The notes: generated by a model from the sequence alone, not told the origin. DNA of 64,000 nucleotides from an uncultured delta proteobacterium (GCA_963731045.1 CAVSVC010000010.1:74630-138629); one strand, 5' to 3'. Counted from the first letter of the stretch, positions 4,472 to 33,407 are shown. Program-made: numbers and translations.

Positions 4472-5319
4472 TTCTTGAAAAGTCCTGTCGGTCTGAAGAG
4501 AAGAATGATCAGGATCGTCACCGAGGGAATGATCTGAGCCATCTTGGCGCTCATATATTGAGTGACCACGGCCTCCAGGATGCCGATGATCAGCCCCCCG
4601 GCCAGGGCCCCCTGGATATTTCCCAGACCCCCCAGGACGACAATGGCAAACGCCTTTGAGACGTAGCTTCCTCCCATCTGAGGAAAGATCACCCACTGCA
4701 GGCTGACGATGGCCCCTGCCGCGCCAGCCAGGGCAATTCCCATTCCGAAGGTCAGCATCCTCATTCTCATGGTGTTGATCCCGCACACCAGGGCCACCTC
4801 CGAGTTCTGAGAAGTGGCCCGGATGGCCTTGCCCCACTTGGAGTACTTCAGAAAGAGAAAGAGCGCCGCCGTGATCCCGATGGCCAGGCCAAAGGAGGCT
4901 GTTTTGCTCTTGCCGAAGACCAGCCCCATGATGGGAAAGCTGCCAGTCAGATAAGAGATAGACCGGTAGGTATTCGTCCAGAAGAACTGGGCCAGATTCC
5001 AGATCAGAATGGACATCCCGAAGGTGAGGATCAGGGCCGAAAGCTCGTGCTCCTTGATGAGCCGTTCCGTAATCCGTCCGTGGATCACCACCCCGAAGAA
5101 AAAGAAGATGGGGACGGCAAGGACCACGGAGAGAAGGGGGTTGAGGTGGAGAAGGCTGAAGGCCCAGAAGGCGAAGTAGGCACCGAGCATGACAAACTCG
5201 CCGTGGGCGATATTGACGATCCCCACCACTCCCCAGACCAGGGTCAAGCCCATGCCCACGAGGGCATAGACCGACCCCAGCATCAATCCCCGAATCAGGA
5301 TTTCGACGAAATTGAGCAT
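4468..5319 (-). CDS. livH: Branched-chain amino-acid ABC permease, LivH type
   Basis: ORF 4468..5319, 283 aa, hydrophobic. The N-terminus MLNFVEILIRGLMLGSVYALVGMGLTLVWG is typical of LivH. Confidence 0.9.
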   Translation of the reverse strand: MLNFVEILIRGLMLGSVYALVGMGLTLVWGVVGIVNIAHGEFVMLGAYFAFWAFSLLHLNPLLSVVLAVPIFFFFGVVIHGRITERLIKEHELSALILTFGMSILIWNLAQFFWTNTYRSISYLTGSFPIMGLVFGKSKTASFGLAIGITAALFLFLKYSKWGKAIRATSQNSEVALVCGINTMRMRMLTFGMGIALAGAAGAIVSLQWVIFPQMGGSYVSKAFAIVVLGGLGNIQGALAGGLIIGILEAVVTQYMSAKMAQIIPSVTILIILLFRPTGLFKK

Positions 5320-5432
5320 AGAACCATGGAATAGTGGAACGATGGAATGTTGGGCAAGAAAATGGAATTCAATTCTGAAAAAGAAACTTGAATCATGATT
5401 CCATCAATCCAATATTCCATTCTTCCAGTGTC
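5320..5432. repeat. Intercistronic TGGAAT/ATTCCA repeat cluster between the binding-protein gene and livH
   Basis: There are four forward TGGAA(T/C) copies (5325-5375) and at least two inverted ATTCCA copies (5398-5422). Together they can fold into long imperfect hairpins on the operon transcript. Confidence 0.45.
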
Positions 5433-6761
5433 TTACTTGCTCCATCCCGGGAAAGGATAGACGGCGTCCGCCGTTTTCATCCCTTTGGGATAAACGATCT
5501 GTTTGATCATCCCTTCAACGGCCACCTGGCTGGGAAGCAGCTTCTTCCCTTCGGCCTTCTGCCACTGGATCAGGTTTGTCGCCTTGCCCACCTGCAACCC
5601 CGAATCCGGACTTCCGAGGGGAGCGATTTCGTACTCGCCGAAGACGGTCGTGGTCTTAATCGAGTACAATTTGTCCCGGATCGCCTTCTTATCTTCCGCA
5701 GAACCGACTTCTTTCATGGCCCGCTCCAGGATCTGTCCCGCTGCGAAACCCGCCGCGGCGTGATAAGAAGGTTCCCCTTTGAACTCCTTCAGATACGCCC
5801 TGTAGAAATCCTGGTTCCCCGGTGTCTTGCTGAAGGGCTCCCAAAAGGTCTCTCCAGTCACATACAGGCCATCGAGTTTCAAGGACTTTGCAAAATCGCC
5901 GATGGCCGGTCCCACGAGGAATCCGAACAGTTTCGGAGTCGCGTTGATGGCCTTCGCCGCTTTGGTCACGCCGATCGAATCGGGAAGATAGCCTCCCCCC
6001 ATAAGGATATCGGGTTTCTGAGACCAGGCTTTCGACACAATGGGTTCCCAGTCCGCCGTCTCTTTCGGATAGGCCTCATCCAGGACAACCTGCATCCCCA
6101 TCTCTTTCGCCTTTGCAACGAGGGGTTTCATGGCCCCGATGGGAAACGCCGTGTCCGAATAGATGAAGGCCACGCTCTTCGCGCCCTTCTCCTTTCCGAT
6201 ATCGAGGCACCCGTAGAGGTTCTTCCAGGCCAGAGGCAGGATACCGACAAACCACTCCCTCTTCTTTCCTTCCCAGATGACAGGCGCATTGGCCAGGGGC
6301 GTAATGATCGGCATCTGGTATTGCTCCGCCAGCGGAGCAATGGCATTCGACGCACCGCTTCCGTACGGGCCGAGGATCAAATCCACCTTATCCGAGACCA
6401 CGAGCTTCCGAACCAGCTTCACCGCCTCGCTGGGATCGCTCTTGTCGTCATAGACCACGAATTCCACCGGACGTCCAAGGAGCCCGGGACCCGAACAGCC
6501 CAGTTTCTCAACCTCTCCGAAGGTGCAACCCTTTTCATTGATAATCTTCCCCCAGAGTTTGTATCCCCCCACTTCCAGCTCGCCTTCCCTGGCCATGGCG
6601 CCGGTCAGGGAGATGGCGACGCCGATCTTGATGGGCGGTTTGGTCTGGGCAAAGACCCTCTTCCTCGCAAGGCTTCCCATGCCGAGGACCGCAGCCCCGA
6701 GCACGCTCTTCTTCATGAAATCCCTTCGGCTCCACTCTCTCTTCGCGCTCTTTTCCCTCAT
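5433..6761 (-). CDS. Periplasmic branched-chain amino-acid (LivJ/K family) binding protein with a Tat-type signal
   Basis: ORF 5433..6761. Twin-arginine motif SRRDFMKKSVLGAAVLGMGSLA, then IKIGVAISLTGAMA, which is typical of type I periplasmic binding proteins. It heads the liv operon. Confidence 0.88.
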   Translation of the reverse strand: MREKSAKREWSRRDFMKKSVLGAAVLGMGSLARKRVFAQTKPPIKIGVAISLTGAMAREGELEVGGYKLWGKIINEKGCTFGEVEKLGCSGPGLLGRPVEFVVYDDKSDPSEAVKLVRKLVVSDKVDLILGPYGSGASNAIAPLAEQYQMPIITPLANAPVIWEGKKREWFVGILPLAWKNLYGCLDIGKEKGAKSVAFIYSDTAFPIGAMKPLVAKAKEMGMQVVLDEAYPKETADWEPIVSKAWSQKPDILMGGGYLPDSIGVTKAAKAINATPKLFGFLVGPAIGDFAKSLKLDGLYVTGETFWEPFSKTPGNQDFYRAYLKEFKGEPSYHAAAGFAAGQILERAMKEVGSAEDKKAIRDKLYSIKTTTVFGEYEIAPLGSPDSGLQVGKATNLIQWQKAEGKKLLPSQVAVEGMIKQIVYPKGMKTADAVYPFPGWSK

Positions 6762-8597: not shown

Positions 8598-8783
8598 TCA
8601 CCCTTGGTTCCATCTCTTTGCCTTCTTGATCGCTTCCGTAATCTCGTCCATATCAAAACGCCAGGAGTCTCCGATCTTGAACCCCGGAAGTTCCCCGGTC
8701 GAGGCCAACTTATAGATCGTGGATTCAGAAAGCTTTAAGAACTGGCTGAGTTCTTTCGCAGTGACAATGCTCCCCATCTTCAC
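8598..8783 (-). CDS. 61-aa excisionase/MerR-type helix-turn-helix DNA-binding protein
   Basis: ORF 8598..8783. VTAKELSQFLKLSESTIYKLASTGELPGFKIGDSWRF matches the HTH_17 / excisionase-family DNA-binding pattern. No integrase is nearby. Confidence 0.8.
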   Translation of the reverse strand: MKMGSIVTAKELSQFLKLSESTIYKLASTGELPGFKIGDSWRFDMDEITEAIKKAKRWNQG

Positions 8784-8865
8784 TCCTCTCGGGGTTGGTT
8801 TCTTTTTGATTTCTCAGTCCGGCTCTAAAGAAGAACACCCCCCTTATCCTGCCGACCCCTCTTGC

Positions 8866-10338
8866 TCACCGGTCCAGGACCTCGCGGACTTTCTTCGCGA
8901 GGGTCGTCGGCGAGAAGGGTTTCTGTAGAAACGGATCTCCCGGCTTGATCAGGGCCTGATGCGTCATCGTTAAATCGGAGTATCCGGAGATGAAAAGTAC
9001 TTTCGCTTCGGGGTGAAGCGTTCTGAATCGGCTAACGAGTTCTCTTCCGCCCACCTGGGGCATGACCACATCGGTAAGAAGAAGATGGATCTCCCTGCCG
9101 GCATAGTCGCGGCCCAGGTGGATGGCCTCGTTTCCGTGGATGGCCTCGATGACCGTGTACCCCTGGTCCCGCAGAATCCGGGCGGCCAATTCACGAACCG
9201 ATGTGTCGTCTTCCACAAGGAGAACCGTCTCATCTCCCTTCGGAGGGGGCTCTTTGGTATCGCGGGGAAGAAGCGTATCGATTTCTTCCTCGATTCGCGG
9301 CAGATAAACCTTGAACGAGGTGCCCCGGTTGACCTCGCTGTAAACCCAGATGTTTCCTCCGCTCTGTTTGACGATGCCGTAAACCGTGGAAAGGCCGAGG
9401 CCGGTCCCCTTTCCTTTCGTTGTAAAGAAGGGTTCGAAGATATGTTCCCTGACCTCGGCCGGCATCCCGCAGCCGGTATCGGTCACTGAGAGCACCACAT
9501 AGCTTCCGGGTCTGACCCCGACATGATAACGGGCGTATTCCTCATCCAGTGCCACATTGGCTGTTTCGAGCAGGAGGGTCCCGCCTTTCGGCATGGCGTC
9601 TCTTGCATTGACGACCAGGTTGAGGATCACCTGCTCGATTTGACTCAGATCGGTCCTGACCCTTCCCAGATCCTGAGCCAAAAGGGTTTTCAACTCGACG
9701 TCCTCCCCGATGATCCGGCGTAACATCCTGTCCAGGTCCTTCAATACCGCATTCAGATCGATCACCTTCATGTCCATGATCTGGCGCCGGCTGAAGGCCA
9801 GAAGCTGATGGGTCAATGCAGAGGCTTTCTCCGTCGCTTTCCGGATCTCCTCCAGATTTCCCCTCATGGGATCGCCCTCTTCAACTCCCAAGAGACAGAG
9901 CTGGGTGTAGCCGCTGAGGACCGTCAACAGGTTGTTGAAGTCATGGGCCACCCCCCCTGCCAGTTTTCCGATCGTCTCCATCTTCTGAGACTGAAAGAAT
10001 TGATTCTCGAGATGCTTTCGTTCGGTGATGTCTTCAATGATGAAGATGGTGAAATCCGGCTCTCCCTCTTCACTCCGGAGAAGTGAAACATTGACCAGCC
10101 CCCAGACGAAGCTGCCGTCTTTTCTGACATAGCGCTTCTCAATCTGGTAGTGATTTCGATTTCCGGACACCAGTTCCTCGTAGGACGGAACTTCCGCGGC
10201 GACATCCTCAGGATGGGTGAATTCTCTGAACAGTCTGTTCTGGAGCTCTTCTTTCCCATATCCAAGCATCCTCTCCAGGGCGGCATTGCTCTCAACAAGC
10301 CTCCCCCCCATATCCACAAGGGCGATCCCCGCCGCCAC
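8866..10338 (-). CDS. Soluble hybrid sensor histidine kinase (PAS-HisKA-HATPase-REC)
   Basis: ORF 8866..10338. H-box [12 protein letters not shown]-boxes DTGCGM and GTGLGLS, and a C-terminal receiver (VLLVEDD...LLLTDVVMP). The true start is probably ATG 10403 (SD GGAGG), reached through a homopolymer indel; see findings. Confidence 0.85.
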
Positions 10339-10503
10339 GCGTTCAAAGATCGCTTTGAACGTCGCCTCATTCCTCTGGGGGGCTTTTTCGGAGCGGTCTG
10401 CATTGGAAGGCCCCTCCGGATTCCAGGGGTGAGCAAAGCCCCTCCTTGAGGATCTTTGCGGGGGTGTCCCTCCGGGGTCTCACGGGCAGGTCTTTCTCAG
10501 GCA

Positions 10504-10869
10504 TCATGCGAACACCTGTGAGGTGATCCTGTCAATTTCAAAAATGTCCAGAGGTTTTCTCAAGTAGTTGAGGATGCCGAGGGATTTTGCCTCGTCTTCC
10601 ACACTCTCCTGATTACTTGCCGTAATGATGACCACGTCCACCTCTTTCTTATTTTCATGAAGCCGTCTCAGAATATCGATCCCATCGATGCCCGGCATCT
10701 TGATATCCAGAAACATGAGACTGGGCGGGTCGTCCTCCAGAATTTGAAGGGCTTTATAACCGTTTTCCGCTTTGATCAGATCGTATCGATCACCCAGAAG
10801 GACTTCAAAAGAATCGAGGATCCCTTGATCATCATCCACAACCAGAATTCGTTTTGAAAGATTTTCCAT
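10504..10869 (-). CDS. Single-domain CheY-like response regulator
   Basis: ORF 10504..11076. The receiver signature starts at ATG 10869 (MENLSKRILVVDDDQG...FLDIKMPGIDG...VIITA). Confidence 0.85.
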   Translation of the reverse strand: MENLSKRILVVDDDQGILDSFEVLLGDRYDLIKAENGYKALQILEDDPPSLMFLDIKMPGIDGIDILRRLHENKKEVDVVIITASNQESVEDEAKSLGILNYLRKPLDIFEIDRITSQVFA

Positions 10870-11086
10870 CGCGTCCTCCACAGCGTCTCTGTCTGAATGC
10901 CACTCTTCTCTCGATGGCGGAGAGAGGACTGAGGCAGGAGTCCAAGTCTTCGTCGGTCGGCCGTTCGAGACCGATACTTGGATGATTCCGGCGAACCGAT
11001 GTCTTTTTATCAGCAAAAAGAATGCCGGATCTCCGTGGAATTCCGGACTGGATGAAACTCTTTTAGAATTCAACAAGTTAAACGAG

Positions 11087-12985
11087 CTAAGGGATGTTAA
11101 GGAAATTCAGGAGAGCGGAGAGCGGATTGCCTATCCTAGTAGGCAGTTCTAAGTTTTTACAACAGGGAGTTCTCAGAACAACGAGGGCTCCTTTGCCTTT
11201 TTCACTCGTGACCTCAATGGAGCCTCTGTGGTCCTCCATGATCTTGTGAGCCAGGGCCATCCCGAGACCCACGCCCTTATCCTTGGTGGTGTAGAAAGGG
11301 TTAAAGATGTTCTTAGCGGTCACTTCGTCCATCCCGATTCCGGTATCCCGGAAGGCGATCTTGACCCTCGGCGACCCGGACTTCTCAACCCTGGAGGATA
11401 CCGAAAGCCGTCCCCCGCCCGGCATGGCCTGAAGGGCGTTGATGATCAGGTTCGAAAAAGCGCGGTAGAGCTTGTCGGGGTCACCATGGATCCCTCGAAG
11501 GCTTCGGTCCAGATGATCCTCAAAAACGATCTGTTTCCTGGCCATCTCTTCGTCATGGAGGTCCGTGACCTGAAGAATCAGTTGATTGACGTCGACATGA
11601 ACAAAGGGTCTCTTCCGGGTTCGGGTCAATTCCAGAAGATCTTCCACCAGTTGATTGATCCGTTCAATTTCGCGGGGGACCGTGACATTGAATCGCTCCA
11701 TAAAAGAGAGATTTTCAACCTTTTTGGGCAGGAGCTGGACGAAGGTCTTGATGGCCGAGAGGGGGTTCTTGATTTCGTGAGCAAGACCCGCAGAAAGGGT
11801 CCCCAGGGCTGCCAGGCGATCCGCCTGCCGGAGTTTCTCCTCCAATCCCTTCATCTCCGTGATGTCCTGGAAGATCGCCAGCGCTCCGATGGCCTTCTTC
11901 TCCCCATCCGTCAGGACCGAGGTGCTCGCCAGGATCCACAGCGTTTCTTCGCCTCTCTTCAGTTCACGCTCGGAAAGGAATAGCCCTTCGCCTTCGGAGA
12001 GGGTCTCGGTCAACATGGCCGAGAGGGGGTGGCTCACCCCCAGGACCTCCTCCAGGTTCCTCCCCGCCATTTCCTCCTCCCTTCTGGCCAGAATGCGCAC
12101 AGCCATCTGATTGAGGGTGACGATTCTCTTTTCCGGATCGATCGTCACGAGTCCATTGGTCATGGAGGCAAGCACGTTATCCGTATAGGCTTTGAGGGAG
12201 GTGATTTCCCGGAGACGGGTTTCCAATTCCATCCTGTGTAGAAGAATCTGCCGGATCATGTGATGAAAGTTCTTTCCCAGCTCTTCAATTTCATCCCCCG
12301 TCCGGATGTCGATGGCCTGTTCAAGATTTCCCCTCGCTGCCGCAATGGTCGATTCCACCAACCTCGAAATGGGTTGGGTGATCCGTCTTGCAAAAAAGAT
12401 GGAACCCAGAATACCGAGGATCACGGCGAAGAAAGCCAGGAGGAGGAGGTTGAAACGCGTCCGGGTAATCTGGCGATACATTCTCTCAAGGGAGAGGCCG
12501 ATTCGGACGGTTCCCCATTTCTCTTCGGACCCTTTGATAAAAACAGGAACGGCAATATCGAGGATCCTTTTTCCCGACTCCCCGTAAGACACGGCCGTGA
12601 CGGTGGGTTTCCGGGCCTCCAGCGCTTTTTGACTGACCTCATCCGTCAGGATCACCCCCTGTTTTTCATCGTGCCGACTGTACACAGCGACTTTCGTCTC
12701 CTTGTCATGGATGATCACGTAATCGATGTCCTCATCAAGCGCAACCTTTTCGCCGTTCTGCTGCAGAACGACATAGTTATAGGTGAGGAGGGCATTGATA
12801 CTGACGGAGGCCAGGTTTTGAGCAATGGCCAGCCCCCGCTTTCTCGACTCTTCCTGAATGATTTCAGACTGGCGTTTCTCAACCAAAAAAATGATGATGG
12901 CCATGAGGACAAGAATCAGGACCGTAGAATAAAGAATGAGACGGTTTTGCAGACGGAGCGATTTTGTTTTCAGAGGCAGAATCAT
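11087..12985 (-). CDS. Membrane sensor histidine kinase (extracytoplasmic domain-HAMP-PAS-HisKA-HATPase), NtrB/AtoS-like
   Basis: ORF 11087..12985. Two TM segments flank an approximately 150-aa loop. HAMP (RRITQPISRL), PAS, H-box AGLAHEIKNPLSAI, and G-boxes DTGIGM and GVGLGM. Confidence 0.9.
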   Translation of the reverse strand: MILPLKTKSLRLQNRLILYSTVLILVLMAIIIFLVEKRQSEIIQEESRKRGLAIAQNLASVSINALLTYNYVVLQQNGEKVALDEDIDYVIIHDKETKVAVYSRHDEKQGVILTDEVSQKALEARKPTVTAVSYGESGKRILDIAVPVFIKGSEEKWGTVRIGLSLERMYRQITRTRFNLLLLAFFAVILGILGSIFFARRITQPISRLVESTIAAARGNLEQAIDIRTGDEIEELGKNFHHMIRQILLHRMELETRLREITSLKAYTDNVLASMTNGLVTIDPEKRIVTLNQMAVRILARREEEMAGRNLEEVLGVSHPLSAMLTETLSEGEGLFLSERELKRGEETLWILASTSVLTDGEKKAIGALAIFQDITEMKGLEEKLRQADRLAALGTLSAGLAHEIKNPLSAIKTFVQLLPKKVENLSFMERFNVTVPREIERINQLVEDLLELTRTRKRPFVHVDVNQLILQVTDLHDEEMARKQIVFEDHLDRSLRGIHGDPDKLYRAFSNLIINALQAMPGGGRLSVSSRVEKSGSPRVKIAFRDTGIGMDEVTAKNIFNPFYTTKDKGVGLGMALAHKIMEDHRGSIEVTSEKGKGALVVLRTPCCKNLELPTRIGNPLSALLNFLNIP

Positions 12986-13012
12986 CTGAATCGGATTCCC
13001 TGTTGCGGAAGA

Positions 13013-14533
13013 TTACTTCTTCTTCAACCATATTTTCTTCATCGGGATGTAAGGCCCCCCAAGGGCGCTCACCTCCACCCCCCTGACGTAAGGTTGATAG
13101 ACCATCTGAAAGAGGGGGTTGACCATGGGGACAATCGGAGCGTCATCCAGAATCATCTCCTCGATCTTTCGGTACATCTCCATTCGCTTGAGATAATCCC
13201 TCTCGGCCCTTGCCTGTTCGAGGAGACGATCGACTTCCGGGTTTTGATAGGCCGTGTAATTATATTTGGATTTGGAATGGAAAAGCGTCCCGAGAAAATT
13301 ATCCGGGTCCGGGAAATCAGCGTACCAGGCATAGATGAAGACAGGGGCCTTGTGATTCCTGAGAAGGGATTCGTACGCAGGCCAGTTGGTTTCAAAACGG
13401 ATGTTCGTTCGCATGCCGATCCTGTTCAGCCGTGACTTGACTTCATTGAGCTCTTTCCGGGCTGCCTCGGACTGGGTCGCACTCCAGATTTCCAGGATCT
13501 GGTTTTTCAGGTCCCCTCCTTCGGCAAGGAGTTTCCTGGCCCGGATTTCATCAAAAGGATACATTTCTTTCTGGGGATCGTGGCCGGGCATCCCCGGGGG
13601 TAAAATACTCTTAGCCAGCATGAACTGATTCTTGTGAAGCTCGGAAACGATGAATTTCTTGTCGATGGCAAGATTGATGGCCTTTCTCAATCCCCGATGA
13701 TCCAGGGGGTTCGACAAGAGATGGAAACCATAGAATCTCAGGGAGAGAAGGGGTTTCTGCAAAAAAGGGTACTGTTTTTCCTGGACGATCTTCTCCAATC
13801 GGTCAGGAGGAATGAAGGATTCCTCCAGAGCACCTTCCTCGAAGGCCCGCAGGATCTCATTCCTGGGGGCTCCGTGGTAGACCTTGAAGACAATCCGATC
13901 CAGAAAAGGCCTTCCCTCAAAGTAATCCGGATTGGCCTCGAGAACGATCTCTTCCCCTTCTTTCATCGACACCAGCTTGAACGGCCCGGTCCCCACGGGA
14001 AAATTCCTGAAACCGATCCCCTTTTTTTTCCCCACCTCTTCCCTGGGAACAACCTTGGCGCCCTTCATGGCAAGGATGCTGATAAATGGGGCATAGGGTT
14101 CGGTCAGAATAATCCGGAGGGTGCGTTCATCCACCGCCACGAGCCCCTTTACCCCTTTTGCCCTTTTTTCCATGAACTCGTTTGCGCCGAGGATCCTGTT
14201 GAAAAAATCGGCGAAATTCGATTGCACATCCGAATCGAGTATCCGGGTGAAGGAGTATACGAAATCCGCTGCAGTCACCTTCCTGCCGTTGTGAAACCGG
14301 ACCCCTTCCCTCAGGTGAAACGTGTAGGTGAGGCCATCCGGAGAGATCTCCCACGATTTTGCAATGGCCGGAACCGTGTTGAGATCCTTGTCGAATTGAA
14401 CCAGGCCATCGAAGATCTGCTGAATGACCGTTGTCGAATAGATGTCCCTGGATAAGGCGGGATCAAGTGTTCTCGGACTGAACTCGAGAGGAATCCGATA
14501 GATCCCTCCGTGATTCGGGGGCTCTTTCTCCAT
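13013..14533 (-). CDS. Family-5 (OppA/DppA/NikA-type) solute-binding protein, orphan (no cognate permease or ATPase genes)
   Basis: ORF 13013..14533 has typical SBP_bac_5 sequence (IAKSWEISPDGLTYTFHLREGVRFHNG). A signal-peptide-like segment (FLFFILLQLFVLSWICPASAQS) lies in frame upstream of ATG 14533 but has no canonical start; see findings. Confidence 0.85.
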   Translation of the reverse strand: MEKEPPNHGGIYRIPLEFSPRTLDPALSRDIYSTTVIQQIFDGLVQFDKDLNTVPAIAKSWEISPDGLTYTFHLREGVRFHNGRKVTAADFVYSFTRILDSDVQSNFADFFNRILGANEFMEKRAKGVKGLVAVDERTLRIILTEPYAPFISILAMKGAKVVPREEVGKKKGIGFRNFPVGTGPFKLVSMKEGEEIVLEANPDYFEGRPFLDRIVFKVYHGAPRNEILRAFEEGALEESFIPPDRLEKIVQEKQYPFLQKPLLSLRFYGFHLLSNPLDHRGLRKAINLAIDKKFIVSELHKNQFMLAKSILPPGMPGHDPQKEMYPFDEIRARKLLAEGGDLKNQILEIWSATQSEAARKELNEVKSRLNRIGMRTNIRFETNWPAYESLLRNHKAPVFIYAWYADFPDPDNFLGTLFHSKSKYNYTAYQNPEVDRLLEQARAERDYLKRMEMYRKIEEMILDDAPIVPMVNPLFQMVYQPYVRGVEVSALGGPYIPMKKIWLKKK

Positions 14534-14718
14534 CGCATCGCCCGAAGGACTTTGAGCCGACGCAGGGCAGATCCACGAGAGGACAAACAGCTGGAGAAGA
14601 ATGAAGAATAAAAATACGTTTGGCCGTTTGCACTTCGGGTGACCTCTAAAATATCCTTGATTCTCTTGGTAACGCTCTGCCGCATATCTTAGAGGGAAAA
14701 AGATGAATTTTCAAGGAC

Positions 14719-14756
14719 AAAAAAAAGAAGCATGATCCCTTCCGAGACATGCTTCT
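14719..14756 (-). terminator. Rho-independent terminator of the micro-gene
   Basis: The minus strand reads AGAAGCATG-tctcggaagggat-CATGCTTCT followed by T8. It starts 31 nt after the micro-ORF stop. Confidence 0.7.
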
Positions 14757-14787
14757 TCTTTTCGTCTGCCGGAAAATCCTTGCCGGA

Positions 14788-14877
14788 TTACCATCCACCT
14801 CCGTCGGCCAGAACCGGGAGCACATAGGCGGCCACTGTCGCTGCTACGATAAGAAGCTCGATCGCGATCTTCTTCAT
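14788..14877 (-). CDS. 29-aa micro-protein MKKIAIELLIVAATVAAYVLPVLADGGGW (Sec-signal-like leader plus pentapeptide, or a single-pass membrane peptide)
   Basis: Too short for the ORF track. ATG 14877 is preceded by GGAGGAGGTGATATC and the stop is TAA 14790-14788. It has its own sigma54 promoter upstream and its own terminator downstream. Confidence 0.6.
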   Translation of the reverse strand: MKKIAIELLIVAATVAAYVLPVLADGGGW

Positions 14878-14941
14878 GATATCACCTCCTCCGATTGGAT
14901 TGAGATAAAGGAACCTGATAAGAACGATGCTGGGGTAGAAG

Positions 14942-14958
14942 AGCAAGACGGGTGCCGG
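14942..14958 (-). promoter_or_regulatory. Sigma54 (-24/-12) promoter
   Basis: The minus strand reads CGGCAC-CCGTC-TTGCT, against the consensus TGGCAC-N5-TTGCW. The GG-N10-GC spacing is exact. The TTGC lies 65 nt upstream of the micro-ORF ATG and directly downstream of a sigma54 activator gene. Confidence 0.7.
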
Positions 14959-15065
14959 AAGAAATGGAGGTCCATTTCTCCGGCCCGGCGGAGGGTAAAT
15001 TGCTGTGATAAAAGGAGTTTTCGGGCAAGCCGTTATTTGGTGTTAGGAAAAGCCCCTTCCGATCA

Positions 15066-15170
15066 GCTGCCTATTCGATTGGGCAGCCCTTGGAGGGAAC
15101 AGGCGGAAAACCATGAAGAACTATTTGATTCAATGGAGGAAGTCTTGATTGCCCATGATGACGGGCAATC
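15066..15170 (-). promoter_or_regulatory. Two dyad-symmetric candidate activator (UAS) sites
   Basis: TGCCTATTCGATTGGGCA (15068-15085) and TGCCCATGATGACGGGCA (15150-15167) both fit TGCC[CT]-N8-GGGCA. Their centres are 82 bp apart, and about 126 and 208 bp upstream of the -24/-12 element. Confidence 0.4.
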
Positions 15171-15442
15171 CATAGAAAAATAAGCGGCTTCCCGGACGAA
15201 ACGAACCCGGACAGACCGTGTTGCGAGCCTTCAAATGCCGGTTTTTGAGAGATCTAAGGGGAAACGGAGGATTTTACTTCCGGCTGCAAAGCGGGTCGCC
15301 GGGGCTGAGTCAACTCATCGGCTCCCCGGCATAAATGTCGGGGCTTGCTCAATAGACCCTGAGCGGCGTTCCTATCCCCGCCTAAAAGGCGGGGCTTCGC
15401 GCCGTCGAACGGGTGAAGCCTCCTTCATCCAACATCAGGACT

Positions 15443-16828
15443 TTATCCGCTTGGTTTCTTGAGGAGTATGCCGAATTGTTTGGCTTTCTGCAGGAGGGTG
15501 TTCCGGTTGATTTTGAGGATTTTGGCCGCCTCCGTCTGGTTCCACCGGGTCGTTTCGAGAACGTTCACGATCATTCTTTTCTCGAACTCTTCCCTGATTC
15601 GGAGGAGCCCCGCCTTCGGCAGATCGAGCCCCCTGACATCCTGGTTCGAAGACATCAGGATTTCTAACGGGATGTCCTCCAATTGAATCGGCTCGGTGCG
15701 ACTCGAAAGAACGACGATCCTCTCAATGAGGTTCTCCAGTTCGCGAATATTCCCCGGCCAATGATACCGCATCAGGCCTTCCATGGCTTTGTCGGAGAAT
15801 CCCGGGATCCTCTTGTGAAAGGCAAGGTTGAACTTGTTCAGGAAATGCTTTGCCAGGAGCGGCATGTCCTCGCTCCTCTCCCGGAGGGACGGGAGGGTGA
15901 TGGGTACAACGTTGAGTCTGAAATAGAGGTCCTGCCGGAACTTCCCTTCCTGGACGGCATGGTCCAGGTTGGTATTGGTGGCGGCAATCACCCGGATATC
16001 GATCTTGAAGGGCTTATTCGATCCGATCCGTTCAATCTCTCTTTCCTGAAGGACCCTCAAAAGCTTTGCCTGAAGATCATGCCTTAATGCGGAGATCTCA
16101 TCGAGAAAAAGGGTGCCGCCATGGGCGTGCTCAAACTTTCCGATCGTCCTCGTGTGAGCTCCTGTAAAGGCCCCCTTTTCGTGGCCGAACATCTCGCTTT
16201 CCATCAATTCAGACGGAATGGCCGCGCAGTTGATTGCCACAAAAGGGCCGCTTTTTCGATTTCCCTGCTCGTGAACGGACCGGGCAATCAGTTCTTTCCC
16301 GGTTCCGCTCTCCCCGGTAATAAGAATACTGGTGGAGGTGAAGGAGACCTTTCTGATGAGGTCGAAGATGTCCAGCATCACTTTGCTCCGGCCAACAATC
16401 TTGTCCGGTCCCCGAAACTGTTTGACTTCTTTCCGGAGGTAGTCCAGTTCTTTCTGAAGCCGCTGATTGCTGATTACCCGCTCGACGGTGGACAGGATCT
16501 CCTCCGGTTCATAGGGCTTGGTGATGTAATCGTAGGCGCCCAGTTTGATCGCGTCCGCCGCCTTTCGGGCGAGGTTGAGGGCAGAGACCATGATGACATC
16601 GATCCCTTCATCCACTTCTTTGATCCGCCGAAGTACCTCCAACCCGTCCATGTCCGGCATATTGACGTCCAGGAGAACAAGATCCACGGGCACTTTCCTG
16701 ATCGTTCTTAACGCCTCCTGCCCGCTTTCCACACTATGGAGTCGGTAATCGTCTTCAAGGATGACTTCAAGCGATTCCCTGGCGCCGGGCTCATCATCGA
16801 CGATCAAGAGACTGGGTTTGATTTCCAT
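15443..16828 (-). CDS. Sigma54-dependent response regulator (REC-AAA+-Fis HTH), NtrC family
   Basis: ORF 15443..17131. Receiver (LLIVDDEPG...LLDVNMPDMDG), Walker A GESGTGKE, GAFTGA motif, and C-terminal HTH (RWNQTEAAKILKINRNTL). I moved the start to ATG 16828 (MEIKPSLLIV). Confidence 0.9.
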   Translation of the reverse strand: MEIKPSLLIVDDEPGARESLEVILEDDYRLHSVESGQEALRTIRKVPVDLVLLDVNMPDMDGLEVLRRIKEVDEGIDVIMVSALNLARKAADAIKLGAYDYITKPYEPEEILSTVERVISNQRLQKELDYLRKEVKQFRGPDKIVGRSKVMLDIFDLIRKVSFTSTSILITGESGTGKELIARSVHEQGNRKSGPFVAINCAAIPSELMESEMFGHEKGAFTGAHTRTIGKFEHAHGGTLFLDEISALRHDLQAKLLRVLQEREIERIGSNKPFKIDIRVIAATNTNLDHAVQEGKFRQDLYFRLNVVPITLPSLRERSEDMPLLAKHFLNKFNLAFHKRIPGFSDKAMEGLMRYHWPGNIRELENLIERIVVLSSRTEPIQLEDIPLEILMSSNQDVRGLDLPKAGLLRIREEFEKRMIVNVLETTRWNQTEAAKILKINRNTLLQKAKQFGILLKKPSG

Positions 16829-16835
16829 CGTTGAA

Positions 16836-16864
16836 AATATAATGGAAAAGGTTTTCGCCGTCAA
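16836..16864 (-). promoter_or_regulatory. Sigma70-type promoter of the activator gene; the transcript may be leaderless
   Basis: The minus strand reads TTGACG(16864-16859)-N17-TATATT(16841-16836), then only 7 nt (TTCAACG) before ATG 16828. There is no SD. Confidence 0.4.
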
Positions 16865-17056
16865 GAAAGGACGAATCGAAGGCATTCCCCCACTGACGGG
16901 GGGCATTGGGAAAGGGAGAAGGGTCTCAGGGCGGGAGGAACTATCTCCAAAATCTTGGTAAGCGGTTAATTGACAGGTAGGGGCTGCGAGGCGGAAGAGG
17001 GTTGCAGAGGCTTTTCTTGCCATTTTTTCCGAGGAATTTCGACAAAAAAGGTGCCG

Positions 17057-17091
17057 CCCTGCCTTCGCCGAAGCGGCTACGCGCAGGCAGG
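17057..17091. repeat. REP-like GC-rich palindromic element, copy 1
   Basis: CCCTGCCTTCGCCGAAGCGGCTACGCGCAGGCAGG is flanked by A6 and T6. It is nearly identical to the reverse complement of 23783-23817. Confidence 0.6.
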
Positions 17092-17217
17092 TCCAAGTTT
17101 TTTCCGACAGTTCCCCCCACCCTGATCTCACTCTGTTGTCCCCCGTCTGAAGGTCGACGTATCGAAAGATTGACTTTTGGCGGAGCGAATGCTAATGGAG
17201 ATTGAGAGGAGAAAAAG

Positions 17218-17922
17218 ATGCGCTTCACGGTTCAGAAAGAGTTGTTTGATCACCTGCCCGATCTTACGCTTGGCGTCGTCGTCGCAACCGGCCTGGACAA
17301 TACCCGTCCCCGCAAAGAAATCGATGATCTTCTGACCCGGGCTGTCGGAGGAATCAAGGAGAACATCAACACGGGGAAACCCCAGGACCATCCCAGGATC
17401 AAACCCTGGAGAGCGGCTTTTTCAAAGGTTGGCATTTCGGGAAGTAAATTTCCGAGTTCCATCGAGTCGATGACCCGGAGAATTCTGAAGGGAGACCCCT
17501 TTCCGAGAATCAACCCCCTGGTTGATCTTTATAACAGTCTCTCGTTGAAGTATCTGGTTCCCATGGGCGGTCACGATCTGGATACCCTGAGGGGAGATGT
17601 CCATCTTCGATTCGCGGAGGGATGGGAACCTTTTACCCCGATGGGAACAGGAGAACCCATGATCGTCCCAAAAGGGGAACTCGTCTATCGAGACGAACAG
17701 GAGGTGCTTACCCGGAATTGGGCATGGCGTCAGTGCGAAAAAGATAAAGCCACGGAAAGAACGAAAAACATCTTCATTCCCATCGACGTTCTTGGAGAGG
17801 TGGGCAAAGAGAGGGCGGGTGAAATCATCCGGGAGTTGGACACCTTGATCCCGCAGTTTCTGGGAGGGAAGATCCTTTCGTCCATTCTGGACAGCGAACA
17901 TCCCTCCGTGGAGATTGGGTGA
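17218..17922 (+). CDS. B3/B4 tRNA-binding-domain protein (PheT B3/B4-like)
   Basis: ORF 17218..17922, SD GAGAGGAG. The sequence pattern (DLTLGVVVATGLDN...PSSIESMTRR...INPLVDLYNSLSLKYLVPMGGHDLD) is typical of stand-alone B3/B4 proteins. Confidence 0.8.
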   Translation: MRFTVQKELFDHLPDLTLGVVVATGLDNTRPRKEIDDLLTRAVGGIKENINTGKPQDHPRIKPWRAAFSKVGISGSKFPSSIESMTRRILKGDPFPRINPLVDLYNSLSLKYLVPMGGHDLDTLRGDVHLRFAEGWEPFTPMGTGEPMIVPKGELVYRDEQEVLTRNWAWRQCEKDKATERTKNIFIPIDVLGEVGKERAGEIIRELDTLIPQFLGGKILSSILDSEHPSVEIG

Positions 17923-32768: not shown

Positions 32769-32813
32769 GAGACAGTTCCCTTCACGGCCTTCCACCGAAG
32801 ACCTATTGTGAAG

Positions 32814-33028
32814 CGTATCCAGGCGGGTTTTCTGACTCACGGATCATCCTACTTGGCCTGCTGCCCTACCCGATCCCAGGCCTCCCTGCCCCTTCCCGTC
32901 CTTTGGCCCTTCTGCACGTTCAGGGCTCAGGAGAGTGGTTCCGGCAGGTTTCGTCCCCGTTTACAGCGGCGTGGCCGTCCCCGAGTCTGACGGGGTTCCC
33001 CTTTAAAGTCCATGCCACCCGGATACGG
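32814..33028 (-). promoter_or_regulatory. Cobalamin riboswitch (RF00174-type aptamer)
   Basis: On the minus strand, P1 is CGTATCC...GGATACG. Conserved core AAAGGGGAACCCCGTCAGACTCGGGGACGGCCACGCCGCTGTAAACGGGGACGAAAC. B12 box GAGTCAGAAAACCCGCC (32838-32822). It sits upstream of btuFCD. Confidence 0.8.
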
Positions 33029-33407
33029 ATCAATTCTTGGGTATTCTATATCACGGTCGTTACCCCGATGTCAATCCGTCGACACGCCTCAATCCTTCGG
33101 GCGATACCTCAGCAACGACCCCGGCAGCCTCCCCCGGAAGACCCGCCGCGTGCAAAACCGCCGCGCCCGCTGTTGCTTCCTCCCCCGCGAAACCCCTGTA
33201 CGGATCCTCCGCCCCTCAGAGAAGGGGTTCTGATGGAAGGTGCGCTGAAAGAGCGGTCCATTCTTGGAGCGGGCCTCTCAAAGCTCATTCCCCTGCCGCT
33301 GCTGGAGACCCCGGGCGATCGGCCGCCGAGGCCCATGCTGCCTCGGTTCCGCGGAGGAGGTATCCGGACGATTGAAGGAGCTTCCTCCCATCTCATTTCG
33401 TCCCGTC

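Follow-up and report, generated by a model that had tools for sequence, protein, structure and literature searches.

Gene-encoded peptide signals are a hallmark of Gram-positive bacteria. To our knowledge, well-supported examples in diderm (double-membrane) bacteria are very rare, and one prominent claim of such a signal comes from a retracted paper (PMC3236232). Here we describe a locus in 64,000 nucleotides of DNA from an uncultured delta proteobacterium (GCA_963731045.1, CAVSVC010000010.1:74630-138629; hereafter the window, with positions counted from its first letter). In this locus, a 29-codon micro-gene lies between the gene for a sigma-54-dependent activator and those for an orphan oligopeptide-binding protein and a membrane sensor kinase. 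An earlier note on the same DNA had suggested that the micro-gene product is exported and cut to release the pentapeptide DGGGW, which the binding protein would sense in the periplasm and report through the kinase to the activator. Covariation between the peptide tail and the binding protein, together with the layout of the locus, points to an undescribed peptide signalling circuit in double-membrane bacteria.

Several known systems share parts of this arrangement. In the Phr–Rap–Opp pathway of Bacillus, as in other RRNPP systems and in PrgZ/cCF10 of Enterococcus, a small pre-peptide carries a Sec-type leader, about five C-terminal residues form the part corresponding to the signal proposed here, recognition is by an OppA-family protein, and the signal diversifies while the leader is conserved. 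The Phr-type OppA, however, feeds a permease and the receptor is a cytoplasmic tetratricopeptide repeat (TPR) protein, whereas the present locus has neither, its host is a diderm and its output is sigma-54-dependent. Since the binding protein is operonic with a membrane kinase, sensing here would be periplasmic.

In that respect the locus resembles LuxP–LuxQ, TorT–TorS and CBP–ChiS (CBP being an SBP_bac_5 member), in which a binding protein dedicated to signalling is encoded beside a kinase with a periplasmic sensor. In the LuxP–LuxQ case the signal also ends at an NtrC-type sigma-54 activator, LuxO, which drives a short transcript beside its own gene. The ligands of this group are autoinducer-2, trimethylamine N-oxide, chitin oligosaccharides and dietary dipeptides, none of which is a peptide that the locus itself encodes and the system itself controls. 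For family 5, a review of binding proteins in signalling names only DppA–Tap, AibA–TlpB and CBP–ChiS, which establish that members of this family are able to signal, and it contains no SBP_bac_5–kinase pair with a gene-encoded ligand (PMC8050422).

The agrBDC system of staphylococci and comQXP of Bacillus offer a further parallel, with a hypervariable signal and receptor recognition segment set within conserved flanks and discrete allelic classes that depart from the phylogeny of neighbouring genes. Their proteins are unrelated to those described here, where the receptor module lies in a soluble binding protein and no dedicated processing enzyme is needed. MgrB–PhoQ is similar in having a tiny hydrophobic protein that is induced by the neighbouring two-component system on which it may act, but differs in that the tail here tracks the binding protein rather than the kinase sensor, and in that the product has a short hydrophobic core and an AXA-type cleavage motif. 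Finally, AtoS–AtoC of Escherichia coli are the best NCBIfam matches of the kinase and activator and have the same domain order (the NF008468/NF008469 pair). The scores are nevertheless below the equivalog cut-offs (460.7 against 714 bits for the activator, E = 4.7e-138; 363.9 against 646 bits for the kinase, E = 1.4e-108), there are no ato genes, and the local targets are the micro-gene and a CheY-like gene. None of these relatives has the full combination of a locus-encoded, Sec-released peptide, a kinase-coupled orphan family-5 protein and sigma-54 control in a diderm, and we did not find the arrangement described in the literature on peptide signalling, sigma-54, binding-protein–kinase pairs and small secreted open reading frames (ORFs).

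A conserved 29-codon gene

The micro-gene occupies positions 14788..14877 on the minus strand (ATG 14877, TAA 14788). Its product is MKKIAIELLIVAATVAAYVLPVLADGGGW, a 24-residue signal-peptide-like leader followed by the tail DGGGW, and the sequence directly upstream is GGAGGAGGTGAT. We collected related loci in two ways. A scan with the binding protein as query, covering a single genome for each species, yielded 17 loci, mostly from Syntrophaceae, Thermodesulfobacteriota or 'delta proteobacterium' metagenome-assembled genomes (MAGs), with binding proteins at 60–71% identity. A degenerate pattern taken from the peptide alignment was confirmed at 119 places in metagenome contigs, and we retained 80 of these. 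In 14/17 genome loci there is one intact 29-codon ORF preceded by an identical AAGGAGGTGAT Shine–Dalgarno (SD) site, about 80 nt 3′ of a conserved sigma-54 promoter and ~330–520 nt 5′ of the binding-protein gene. One other locus sequence (L005) ends just upstream of the binding protein, and another (L015, discussed below) carries a different small ORF.

Wherever it is complete, the ORF is exactly 29 codons long, and it is found at the same position in about 90 related loci, 15 of them from genomes and about 75 from metagenomes. The earlier note had proposed looking for such ORFs between NtrC-type genes and SBP_bac_5–kinase pairs in relatives, and this is where they were found. The 71 distinct ORF sequences have nucleotide entropies of 0.40, 0.20 and 0.97 at the first, second and third codon positions, and the ratio of non-synonymous to synonymous variation (pN/pS) was 0.20 for the leader against 0.44 for the tail. 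Apart from the SD site, the 5′ and 3′ untranslated flanks are unconserved. Third-position entropy, pN/pS, fixed length and unconserved flanks all argue for a coding gene. On these comparative grounds we conclude that the micro-ORF, as had been proposed from its SD site and terminator, is a protein-coding gene under purifying selection and neither a chance ORF nor primarily an RNA. No Pfam or NCBIfam family was matched by this micro-protein or by the longer one of the second branch described below, and the micro-transcript matched nothing in Rfam at the gathering threshold and had only chance hits at E ≤ 1. Existing annotations either omit these genes or label them 'hypothetical'.

The leader consensus is MKKIAIEL.II...VMAYVLPVLA, with invariant or near-invariant positions throughout. 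It has the n-, h- and c-region layout of a Sec signal peptide, with two lysines, a hydrophobic run of 13–17 residues after E/Q7 and then P-V-L-A, over 24 residues in all. P21, V22 and A24 fall at −4, −3 and −1 relative to the predicted cleavage site. The invariant P-x-x-A ends the hydrophobic run, with a small residue at −1 and V or A at −3. This predicted layout, a Sec-type leader plus five residues, is kept across the related loci. Mean column identity is 84% over the whole peptide; by visual comparison of N termini, the signal peptides of the neighbouring binding proteins are nearly unrelated to one another.

The tail follows the pattern [D/E]-G-G-G-X, the commonest forms being EGGGY (12), DGGGY (11), EGGGW (8), DGGGC (8) and DSGGW (5), alongside rarer ones. 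The last residue is W, Y, C, S, N, G, A or D, depending on the locus. Contrary to the expectation that the pentapeptide would be the better conserved part, it is the leader that varies less, while the tail diversifies with the receptor. Tandem copies of the micro-gene, two or three per locus, have identical tails despite differences in the leader or pro-region (L043, L029, L041, L042, L044 and L101). The two copies in L043, for instance, have seven leader differences and both end in EGGGY. In L085, L090 and L095 the tails CDGGW or CGGGW create a lipobox-like L-A-C junction (VLA|C), so that these products could in principle be lipid-modified instead of released.

Covariation of the tail with the binding protein

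We compared tail sequences with one-high-scoring-segment translations of the binding protein, kinase and activator from the same loci, using partial Mantel tests on 28–30 non-redundant loci. With kinase distance controlled for, binding-protein distance was correlated with tail distance (partial r = 0.63, p = 0.0005) and with the identity of the last tail residue (partial r = 0.76, p = 0.0005). No such relation was seen between the tail and the kinase or activator when the binding protein was controlled for (r = −0.11 to −0.18), nor with the periplasmic domain of the kinase (partial r = 0.06, p = 0.33). The sCache_3_2 domain of the kinase showed weak covariation with the conserved parts of the binding protein (partial r = 0.30).

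The signal in the binding protein is confined to one part of the chain. For residues ~200–395, identity in pairs of loci with different tails was only 0.60–0.74 of that in pairs with the same tail, compared with ratios of 0.99–1.00 for residues 1–200 and 0.92–0.97 for residues 396–475. The putative specificity module comprises residues ~239–395, numbered on the 506-residue ORF of the window. The nearest neighbour by module sequence had the same tail class in 54/55 cases (chance 0.37), compared with 34/55 for the remainder of the binding protein and 13/29 for each of the kinase and the activator. Pairs of binding proteins that are 0.85–0.90 identical outside the module fall to 0.40–0.49 within it when their tail classes differ, whereas same-class pairs at matched outside identity are mostly ~0.8 identical inside the module (range 0.69–0.85). 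The columns most informative on tail class are 319, 368, 357, 230, 323, 364, 294, 272, 252, 304, 296 and 300. Residue 357 varies in a size-compensating manner, with Ala accompanying a tail W, Leu a Y, Trp a C, and Met or Ile the small last residues. These results indicate that the tail is coupled specifically to the adjacent orphan binding protein, as the proposal of a cognate receptor had implied.

The binding protein as a candidate peptide receptor

The binding protein (13013..14633, minus strand, with the body of the ORF starting at ATG 14533) belongs to the SBP_bac_5 family of DppA/OppA-type proteins (PF00496, E = 1.4e-86). Its closest entries in the PDB are uncharacterised peptide-binding proteins, 8upi (6.5e-72) and 5u4o. 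E. coli DppA (1dpp, 7.8e-54), OppA, MppA and PrgZ (1e-35) were also matched. By pairwise alignment, Asp406 corresponds to DppA Asp408 in a W-Y-A-D-F-P-D-P motif, and it is invariant in 67/67 binding-protein sequences. The dipeptide bound by DppA is held at its amino group by this Asp (D436 in precursor numbering) and at its carboxyl group by Arg355 (R383) (PMC12136057; PMC3295651), and binding is lost in a double mutant of the two residues (PMC12136057). The counterpart of this Asp in MppA and OppA contacts the amine at the ligand N terminus, and these proteins bury their ligands completely (PMC3173086).

The loop that carries Arg355 in DppA appears to be absent here. The alignment has a four-residue gap at R355–N358, immediately beside the covarying residue 357, and such a loss would be compatible with a ligand longer than a dipeptide. 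We take OppA Lys307 to be the residue that meets the carboxylate of a pentapeptide, and the covarying cluster 294–307 aligns near it; we treat this only as a lead.

In the window, the ORF that starts at ATG 14533 encodes the 506 residues that gene callers give and has no signal peptide, whereas homologues are mostly ~530–545 residues long and have one. Upstream of ATG 14533, within 14533..14640, signal-peptide-like codons (..FLFFILLQLFVLSWICPASA|QSPSG) continue in frame with no start codon. A GTG at 14633 (MQTAKRIF..) lies one base out of frame, across a T-run at ~14612–14616, and since that start is in the other frame there is an apparent 1-nt frameshift in the T-run of the binding-protein signal peptide.

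Promoters and transcription units

A sigma-54 promoter of the micro-gene, with −24/−12 elements GGCAC-N5-TTGCT (GGCACCCGTCTTGCT), was identified by motif scan at 14942..14956 on the minus strand. Only two −24/−12 matches occur in the 64-kb window, against 0.28 expected. The promoter that had been predicted before the micro-gene is conserved, standing 71–86 nt before the ATG in 73/75 unique related loci. Two upstream activating sequence (UAS) dyads, listed without strand, precede it. The distal one is TGCCC-N8-GGGCA (TGCCCGTCATCATGGGCA, 15150..15167), ~210 bp upstream of the −24 element, and the proximal one is TGCCC-N8-AGGCA (TGCCCAATCGAATAGGCA, 15068..15085), ~128 bp upstream. Both dyads had been described as TGCC[CT]-N8-GGGCA; both are present, but the second ends in AGGCA. 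The general pattern TGCC-N10-GGCA has eight matches in the window against 1.27 expected, and none of 100 shuffles reached eight. In related loci the dyads stand at fixed distances of 116–128 and 206–210 bp from the −24 element. Allowing at most one mismatch, the distal dyad was found in 43/73 loci and the proximal dyad in 38/73, many copies being degenerate.

The micro-gene transcript would end at an intrinsic terminator at 14719..14760 on the minus strand (hairpin 14715..14775, −31.1 kcal/mol, z = −6.9) with eight consecutive U after it. In 88% of related loci a T-run is likewise preceded by a hairpin below −10 kcal/mol, mostly ~61–65 nt past the stop codon among those listed. Beyond the terminator lies a sigma-70-like promoter for the binding-protein/kinase operon, TTGAAA-17-TAAGAT (14686..14714, minus strand). 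Most related loci have TTGACATCC..TATAnATA, of the TTGACA..TATA type, at the equivalent place. This comes from reading the sequences, which we relied on because a strict sigma-70 regular expression, which undercounts the element, matched only 15/79 loci. With their own sigma-70-type promoter past the micro-gene terminator, the sensor genes seem to be expressed independently of the peptide gene.

The only other −24/−12 match in the window is a second sigma-54 promoter, GGCATTCTTTTTGCT (11012..11026, minus strand), upstream of the CheY-like gene. A perfect UAS dyad (TGCCTACTAGGATAGGCA, 11128..11145, likewise listed without strand) precedes it by 119 bp and falls within the 3′ end of the kinase gene. 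This promoter, between the kinase and response-regulator (REC) genes, is kept in 38/38 unique loci, and a dyad with at most one mismatch stands 100–140 bp upstream of it in 29/38. The regulatory picture in the earlier note, correct for the micro-gene promoter, had overlooked this second element. The second promoter and its dyad imply that the activator acts locally on the CheY-like gene, with the hybrid kinase where that is present, as well as on the micro-gene.

Gene order and neighbourhood

Every component listed in the earlier note was found where it had been placed, on the minus strand, by Pfam and by reading the sequence. The NtrC/AtoC-like sigma-54 activator (REC-Sigma54_activat-AAA_lid-HTH_8) is encoded at 15443..16828, its true ATG being 16828 within an ORF of 15443..17131. 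The AtoS-like membrane sensor kinase (sCache_3_2-HAMP-PAS-HisKA-HATPase_c, 11087..12985) starts 27 nt past the binding-protein stop codon and has its sCache_3_2 sensor domain at residues 43–174, before HAMP. The CheY-like single-domain response regulator follows at 10504..10868 (true ATG 10868, after a GGAGGA site, in an ORF of 10504..11076), then a soluble hybrid kinase (PAS-HisKA-HATPase_c-REC, 8866..10338) and a protein with an excisionase-type HTH_17 domain (8598..8783).

The order activator, micro-gene, binding protein, kinase and CheY-like REC is kept in every sufficiently long locus except L039. In that locus the micro-gene is followed by an unrelated reverse-strand ORF, possibly an insertion element (265–1100), and the locus is apparently disrupted. 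The activator is syntenic wherever the locus is long enough (63–83% identity), as is the CheY-like REC (63–84%). The kinase gene is always immediately 3′ of the binding-protein gene, adjacent or overlapping, in all related loci from three phyla. Two of the genes initially counted as parts of the circuit fare less well. The hybrid kinase is present in the window but in only about half of related loci, and is an accessory part, and the HTH_17 gene recurs in one locus only and lies outside the conserved module. The window copy of the hybrid kinase aligns with residues 161–669 of ~680-residue homologues (679 residues in L002). It is missing the first ~160 residues, including one PAS domain, and there is no canonical start before GTG 10338 in the open frame 8866..10392.

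The description of the binding protein as an orphan, with no permease or ATPase nearby, is borne out. No Opp/Dpp permease or ATPase gene was found among the flanking ORFs scanned (~3.5–23.8 kb of the window), and no BPD_transp_1 or ABC ATPase gene for a family-5 system in the window locus or in any related locus. There is also no cytoplasmic TPR-type receptor, Pfam giving only the sigma-54 activator, the binding protein, kinases and REC domains. The neighbours in the window are a major facilitator superfamily transporter, Liv-type ABC genes, a B3_4-domain gene and pyruvate:ferredoxin oxidoreductase genes. The B3_4-domain gene is divergent from the activator gene, and its position is kept in many related loci. 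An apparently conserved 159-residue minus-strand ORF upstream of the activator (17422..17901) was set aside as the antisense shadow of this plus-strand gene (17218..17922). A cobalamin riboswitch at 32805..33037 on the minus strand (RF00174, 80.7 bits, E = 2.8e-18) has no relation to the peptide module.

A second branch with longer micro-proteins

Locus L015, from a Verrucomicrobiia MAG, has the same gene order, with a binding protein 46% identical to that of the window, a TGGC-N8-TTGCT promoter and a different small ORF. Its binding protein has abundant homologues, most of them from MAGs that carry the name Rokubacteria or Methylomirabilota. Three such loci contain an activator, a 45-residue gene, SBP_bac_5, an sCache_3_2-HAMP-PAS kinase and then a REC or hybrid-kinase gene, with a sigma-54 promoter 84–95 nt upstream of the micro-gene and a GC-rich hairpin between the micro-gene and the binding-protein gene. 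The micro-proteins of this branch have 42–47 residues and form at least 251 clusters, nameless or labelled 'hypothetical' and belonging to no Pfam family. They follow the pattern M-x-K..LASFLLVAPVIES-GTSESTQ.F.AIG[NT]A-[D/E]-G-G-G-(G)n-X, in which the last residue is D, E, G, A, F, C or I. The tandem copies in L101 (2731–3269), a locus of this branch, again have one and the same tail. In L098 (9568–10152), L099 and L100, the kinase gene overlaps at its end with the REC or hybrid-kinase gene, and the two are therefore co-transcribed. Given this overlap, only the 29-residue branch may have a sigma-54 promoter reserved for the REC gene.

All that the two branches have in common is the gene order and the C-terminal A-[D/E]-GGG..X motif, which is the part proposed as the signal. 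In the longer branch a second cut after the Ala would be needed; maturation of Phr peptides likewise involves a second cut. Among the binding proteins of this branch the Asp is conserved in 8/8 full-length sequences. Residues 201–395 are among the least conserved (0.51–0.58), with most other bins at 0.60–0.83 and residues 436–475 at 0.57. Four loci were left out of this comparison, two being truncated, one ending right after the micro-gene and one having no DNA.

Alternative explanations

The alternative that survives best has the uncleaved 29-residue product remaining in the inner membrane as a small single-pass protein and acting directly on the kinase, in MgrB- or SafA-like feedback, with the binding protein devoted to an unrelated external ligand, for example environmental peptides. 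There are precedents, such as MgrB–PhoQ, for small membrane proteins that are induced by the very system they regulate. The leader is strongly conserved at E/Q7, Y18 and P21, and its low pN/pS goes beyond generic signal-peptide needs; for this reason the explanation keeps some weight, although we consider it unlikely. Leader distance is also correlated with kinase distance when the binding protein is controlled for (partial r = 0.47). That correlation, however, is much the same for the cytoplasmic, transmembrane and periplasmic parts of the kinase (0.25–0.44, with the activator controlled for), so it looks like shared ancestry rather than transmembrane contact, and we dropped the idea of such a contact. 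A membrane modulator would not be predicted to have a tail that covaries with the binding protein and not with the periplasmic domain of the kinase. The hydrophobic run is also interrupted by E/Q7, its uninterrupted stretch has only 13–17 residues and ends in the invariant P-x-x-A site, and a five-residue tail held on a transmembrane helix could not enter a buried OppA-type cleft (PMC3173086).

We regard as improbable the explanation that tail and receptor covary through linkage, that is, through joint horizontal transfer of neighbouring DNA, and not through function. The micro-gene and the binding-protein gene are separated by only about 250–350 bp, and conserved flanks would favour the exchange of cassettes by homologous recombination. 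But the ~600 nt of the binding-protein gene nearest the tail, encoding residues 1–200, do not covary with it (ratio 0.99–1.00, against 0.60–0.74 for residues 239–395), a pattern that one linked block could not produce. Were two pieces exchanged and then kept together, selection for matching pairs would still be implied.

It is likewise improbable that the micro-gene encodes the precursor of a modified product, resembling a ribosomally synthesized and post-translationally modified peptide (RiPP), or a substrate or decoy of a periplasmic enzyme, with the binding protein covarying only through import or scavenging. A conserved leader with a variable C-terminal core is typical of RiPP precursors, and tandem precursor copies fit the same picture. 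Against this, the neighbourhood contains no conserved modifying enzyme, dedicated protease or exporter, and flanks differ between loci; the leader is hydrophobic and of the Sec type rather than a cytoplasmic recognition leader; and the binding protein is operonic with a kinase and has no permease.

That the short sigma-54 transcript acts mainly as a Qrr- or GlmY-like regulatory RNA, with the ORF incidental or secondary, is scarcely credible: a short monocistronic transcript with its own strong terminator beside an NtrC-type activator gene is indeed the layout shared by luxO–qrr1 and glrR–glmY, but the micro-gene has a coding signature (third-position entropy 0.97 against 0.20–0.40 at the other positions), a fixed 29 codons and a perfect SD site, its untranslated sequence is unconserved, the transcript matches no Rfam family, and the second branch keeps the peptide and not the RNA.

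Discussion

We propose, with a probability of roughly 0.6, that the micro-gene encodes a Sec-exported oligopeptide that is sensed in the periplasm by its cognate orphan binding protein, which would signal through the AtoS/AtoC-like system. In this circuit, a constitutive sigma-70-type promoter would supply the periplasmic DppA/OppA-family binding protein and the AtoS-like membrane kinase, and the kinase presumably controls the adjacent AtoC/NtrC-like activator. Acting at TGCC-N10-GGCA enhancers, the activator would switch on two sigma-54 promoters, one giving a short monocistronic transcript for the 29-residue pre-peptide and the other the CheY-like response regulator, together with the hybrid kinase in many genomes. 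The pre-peptide would consist of a Sec signal peptide (MKK, a core of 13–17 residues and P-V-L-A) and only five further residues. Recognition of the last residue by the binding protein, and a requirement for a free alpha-amino group, would mean that the tail has to be freed from the leader. Signal peptidase I is the obvious candidate given the canonical 24-residue leader layout, and no dedicated protease or exporter is conserved near the related loci. A cut by signal peptidase I after Ala24 would leave [D/E]-G-G-G-X in the periplasm, and a peptide of ~450 Da should pass porins. Its action may be intercellular or confined to the periplasm of the producing cell.

The binding protein would then capture the peptide, with the free amino group paired to the invariant Asp406 and the C-terminal residue in a pocket formed by the variable module at ~239–395. 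Loaded binding protein may modulate the kinase in either direction, on for autoinduction or off for homeostasis as in the logic of LuxPQ. Matched pairs of tail and receptor module would differ between lineages in the manner of pherotypes. Export, cleavage and direct binding are steps that we infer, as are the coupling of the binding protein to the kinase and the onward phosphotransfer to the activator; the positive feedback of the earlier note is an assumption, since the loop may have either sign. The interpretation in that note is partly supported. A real sigma-54-driven gene and a tail coupled to the binding protein bear it out, as does an Asp kept in 67/67 sequences, whereas the greater conservation of the tail and the role of the HTH_17 protein do not stand.

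Several observations weigh against the proposed circuit. The leader is far more conserved than the signal peptides of the neighbouring binding proteins, by visual comparison, and may thus have a further function beyond the model. Cleavage is predicted from the n/h/c layout only, and a 29-residue pre-protein with a five-residue mature part is a putative substrate of Sec and signal peptidase. The frameshift in the binding-protein signal peptide of the window may be either a sequencing (homopolymer) error or a sign of a truly inactivated receptor. Covarying residues were placed by pairwise alignment to DppA, and their position in the pocket lining is therefore putative. With only eight full-length binding proteins, the covariation test in the second branch is underpowered. 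Nor is the receptor lineage strictly one, since in L017 the micro-gene stands beside a binding protein only 27% identical to that of the window, with an orthologous kinase (46–75%) and activator (63%). L017 also has three tandem copies of the micro-gene (5290–6000), two of them apparently frameshifted or degenerate, and looks like a case either of non-orthologous receptor replacement or of indel errors in a long-read MAG.

A wider claim is more evenly poised. It holds that these loci represent a previously unrecognised class of ribosomal oligopeptide autoinducers in diderms, in which a Sec-released [D/E]-Gly(n)-X peptide would act through an orphan DppA/OppA-like receptor, a kinase and a sigma-54 activator, and in which pherotypes would arise by joint exchange of the receptor module and the last peptide residue. 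The class would span Thermodesulfobacteriota (Syntrophaceae-type MAGs), Methylomirabilota ('Rokubacteria') and a Verrucomicrobiia MAG.

Comparative data alone thus point to a gene for the signal, to a likely receptor and even to the part of that receptor that determines specificity, in host lineages that are abundant and uncultured and live in sediments, groundwater and soils. The hypothesis can be tested with synthetic pentapeptides and recombinant binding proteins, without culturing. If it is true, the circuit would be a new architecture for quorum or autocrine sensing, its variants would provide synthetic biology with a natural set of orthogonal peptide–receptor pairs, and many proteins annotated in MAGs as 'oligopeptide ABC substrate-binding proteins' would be signal receptors.

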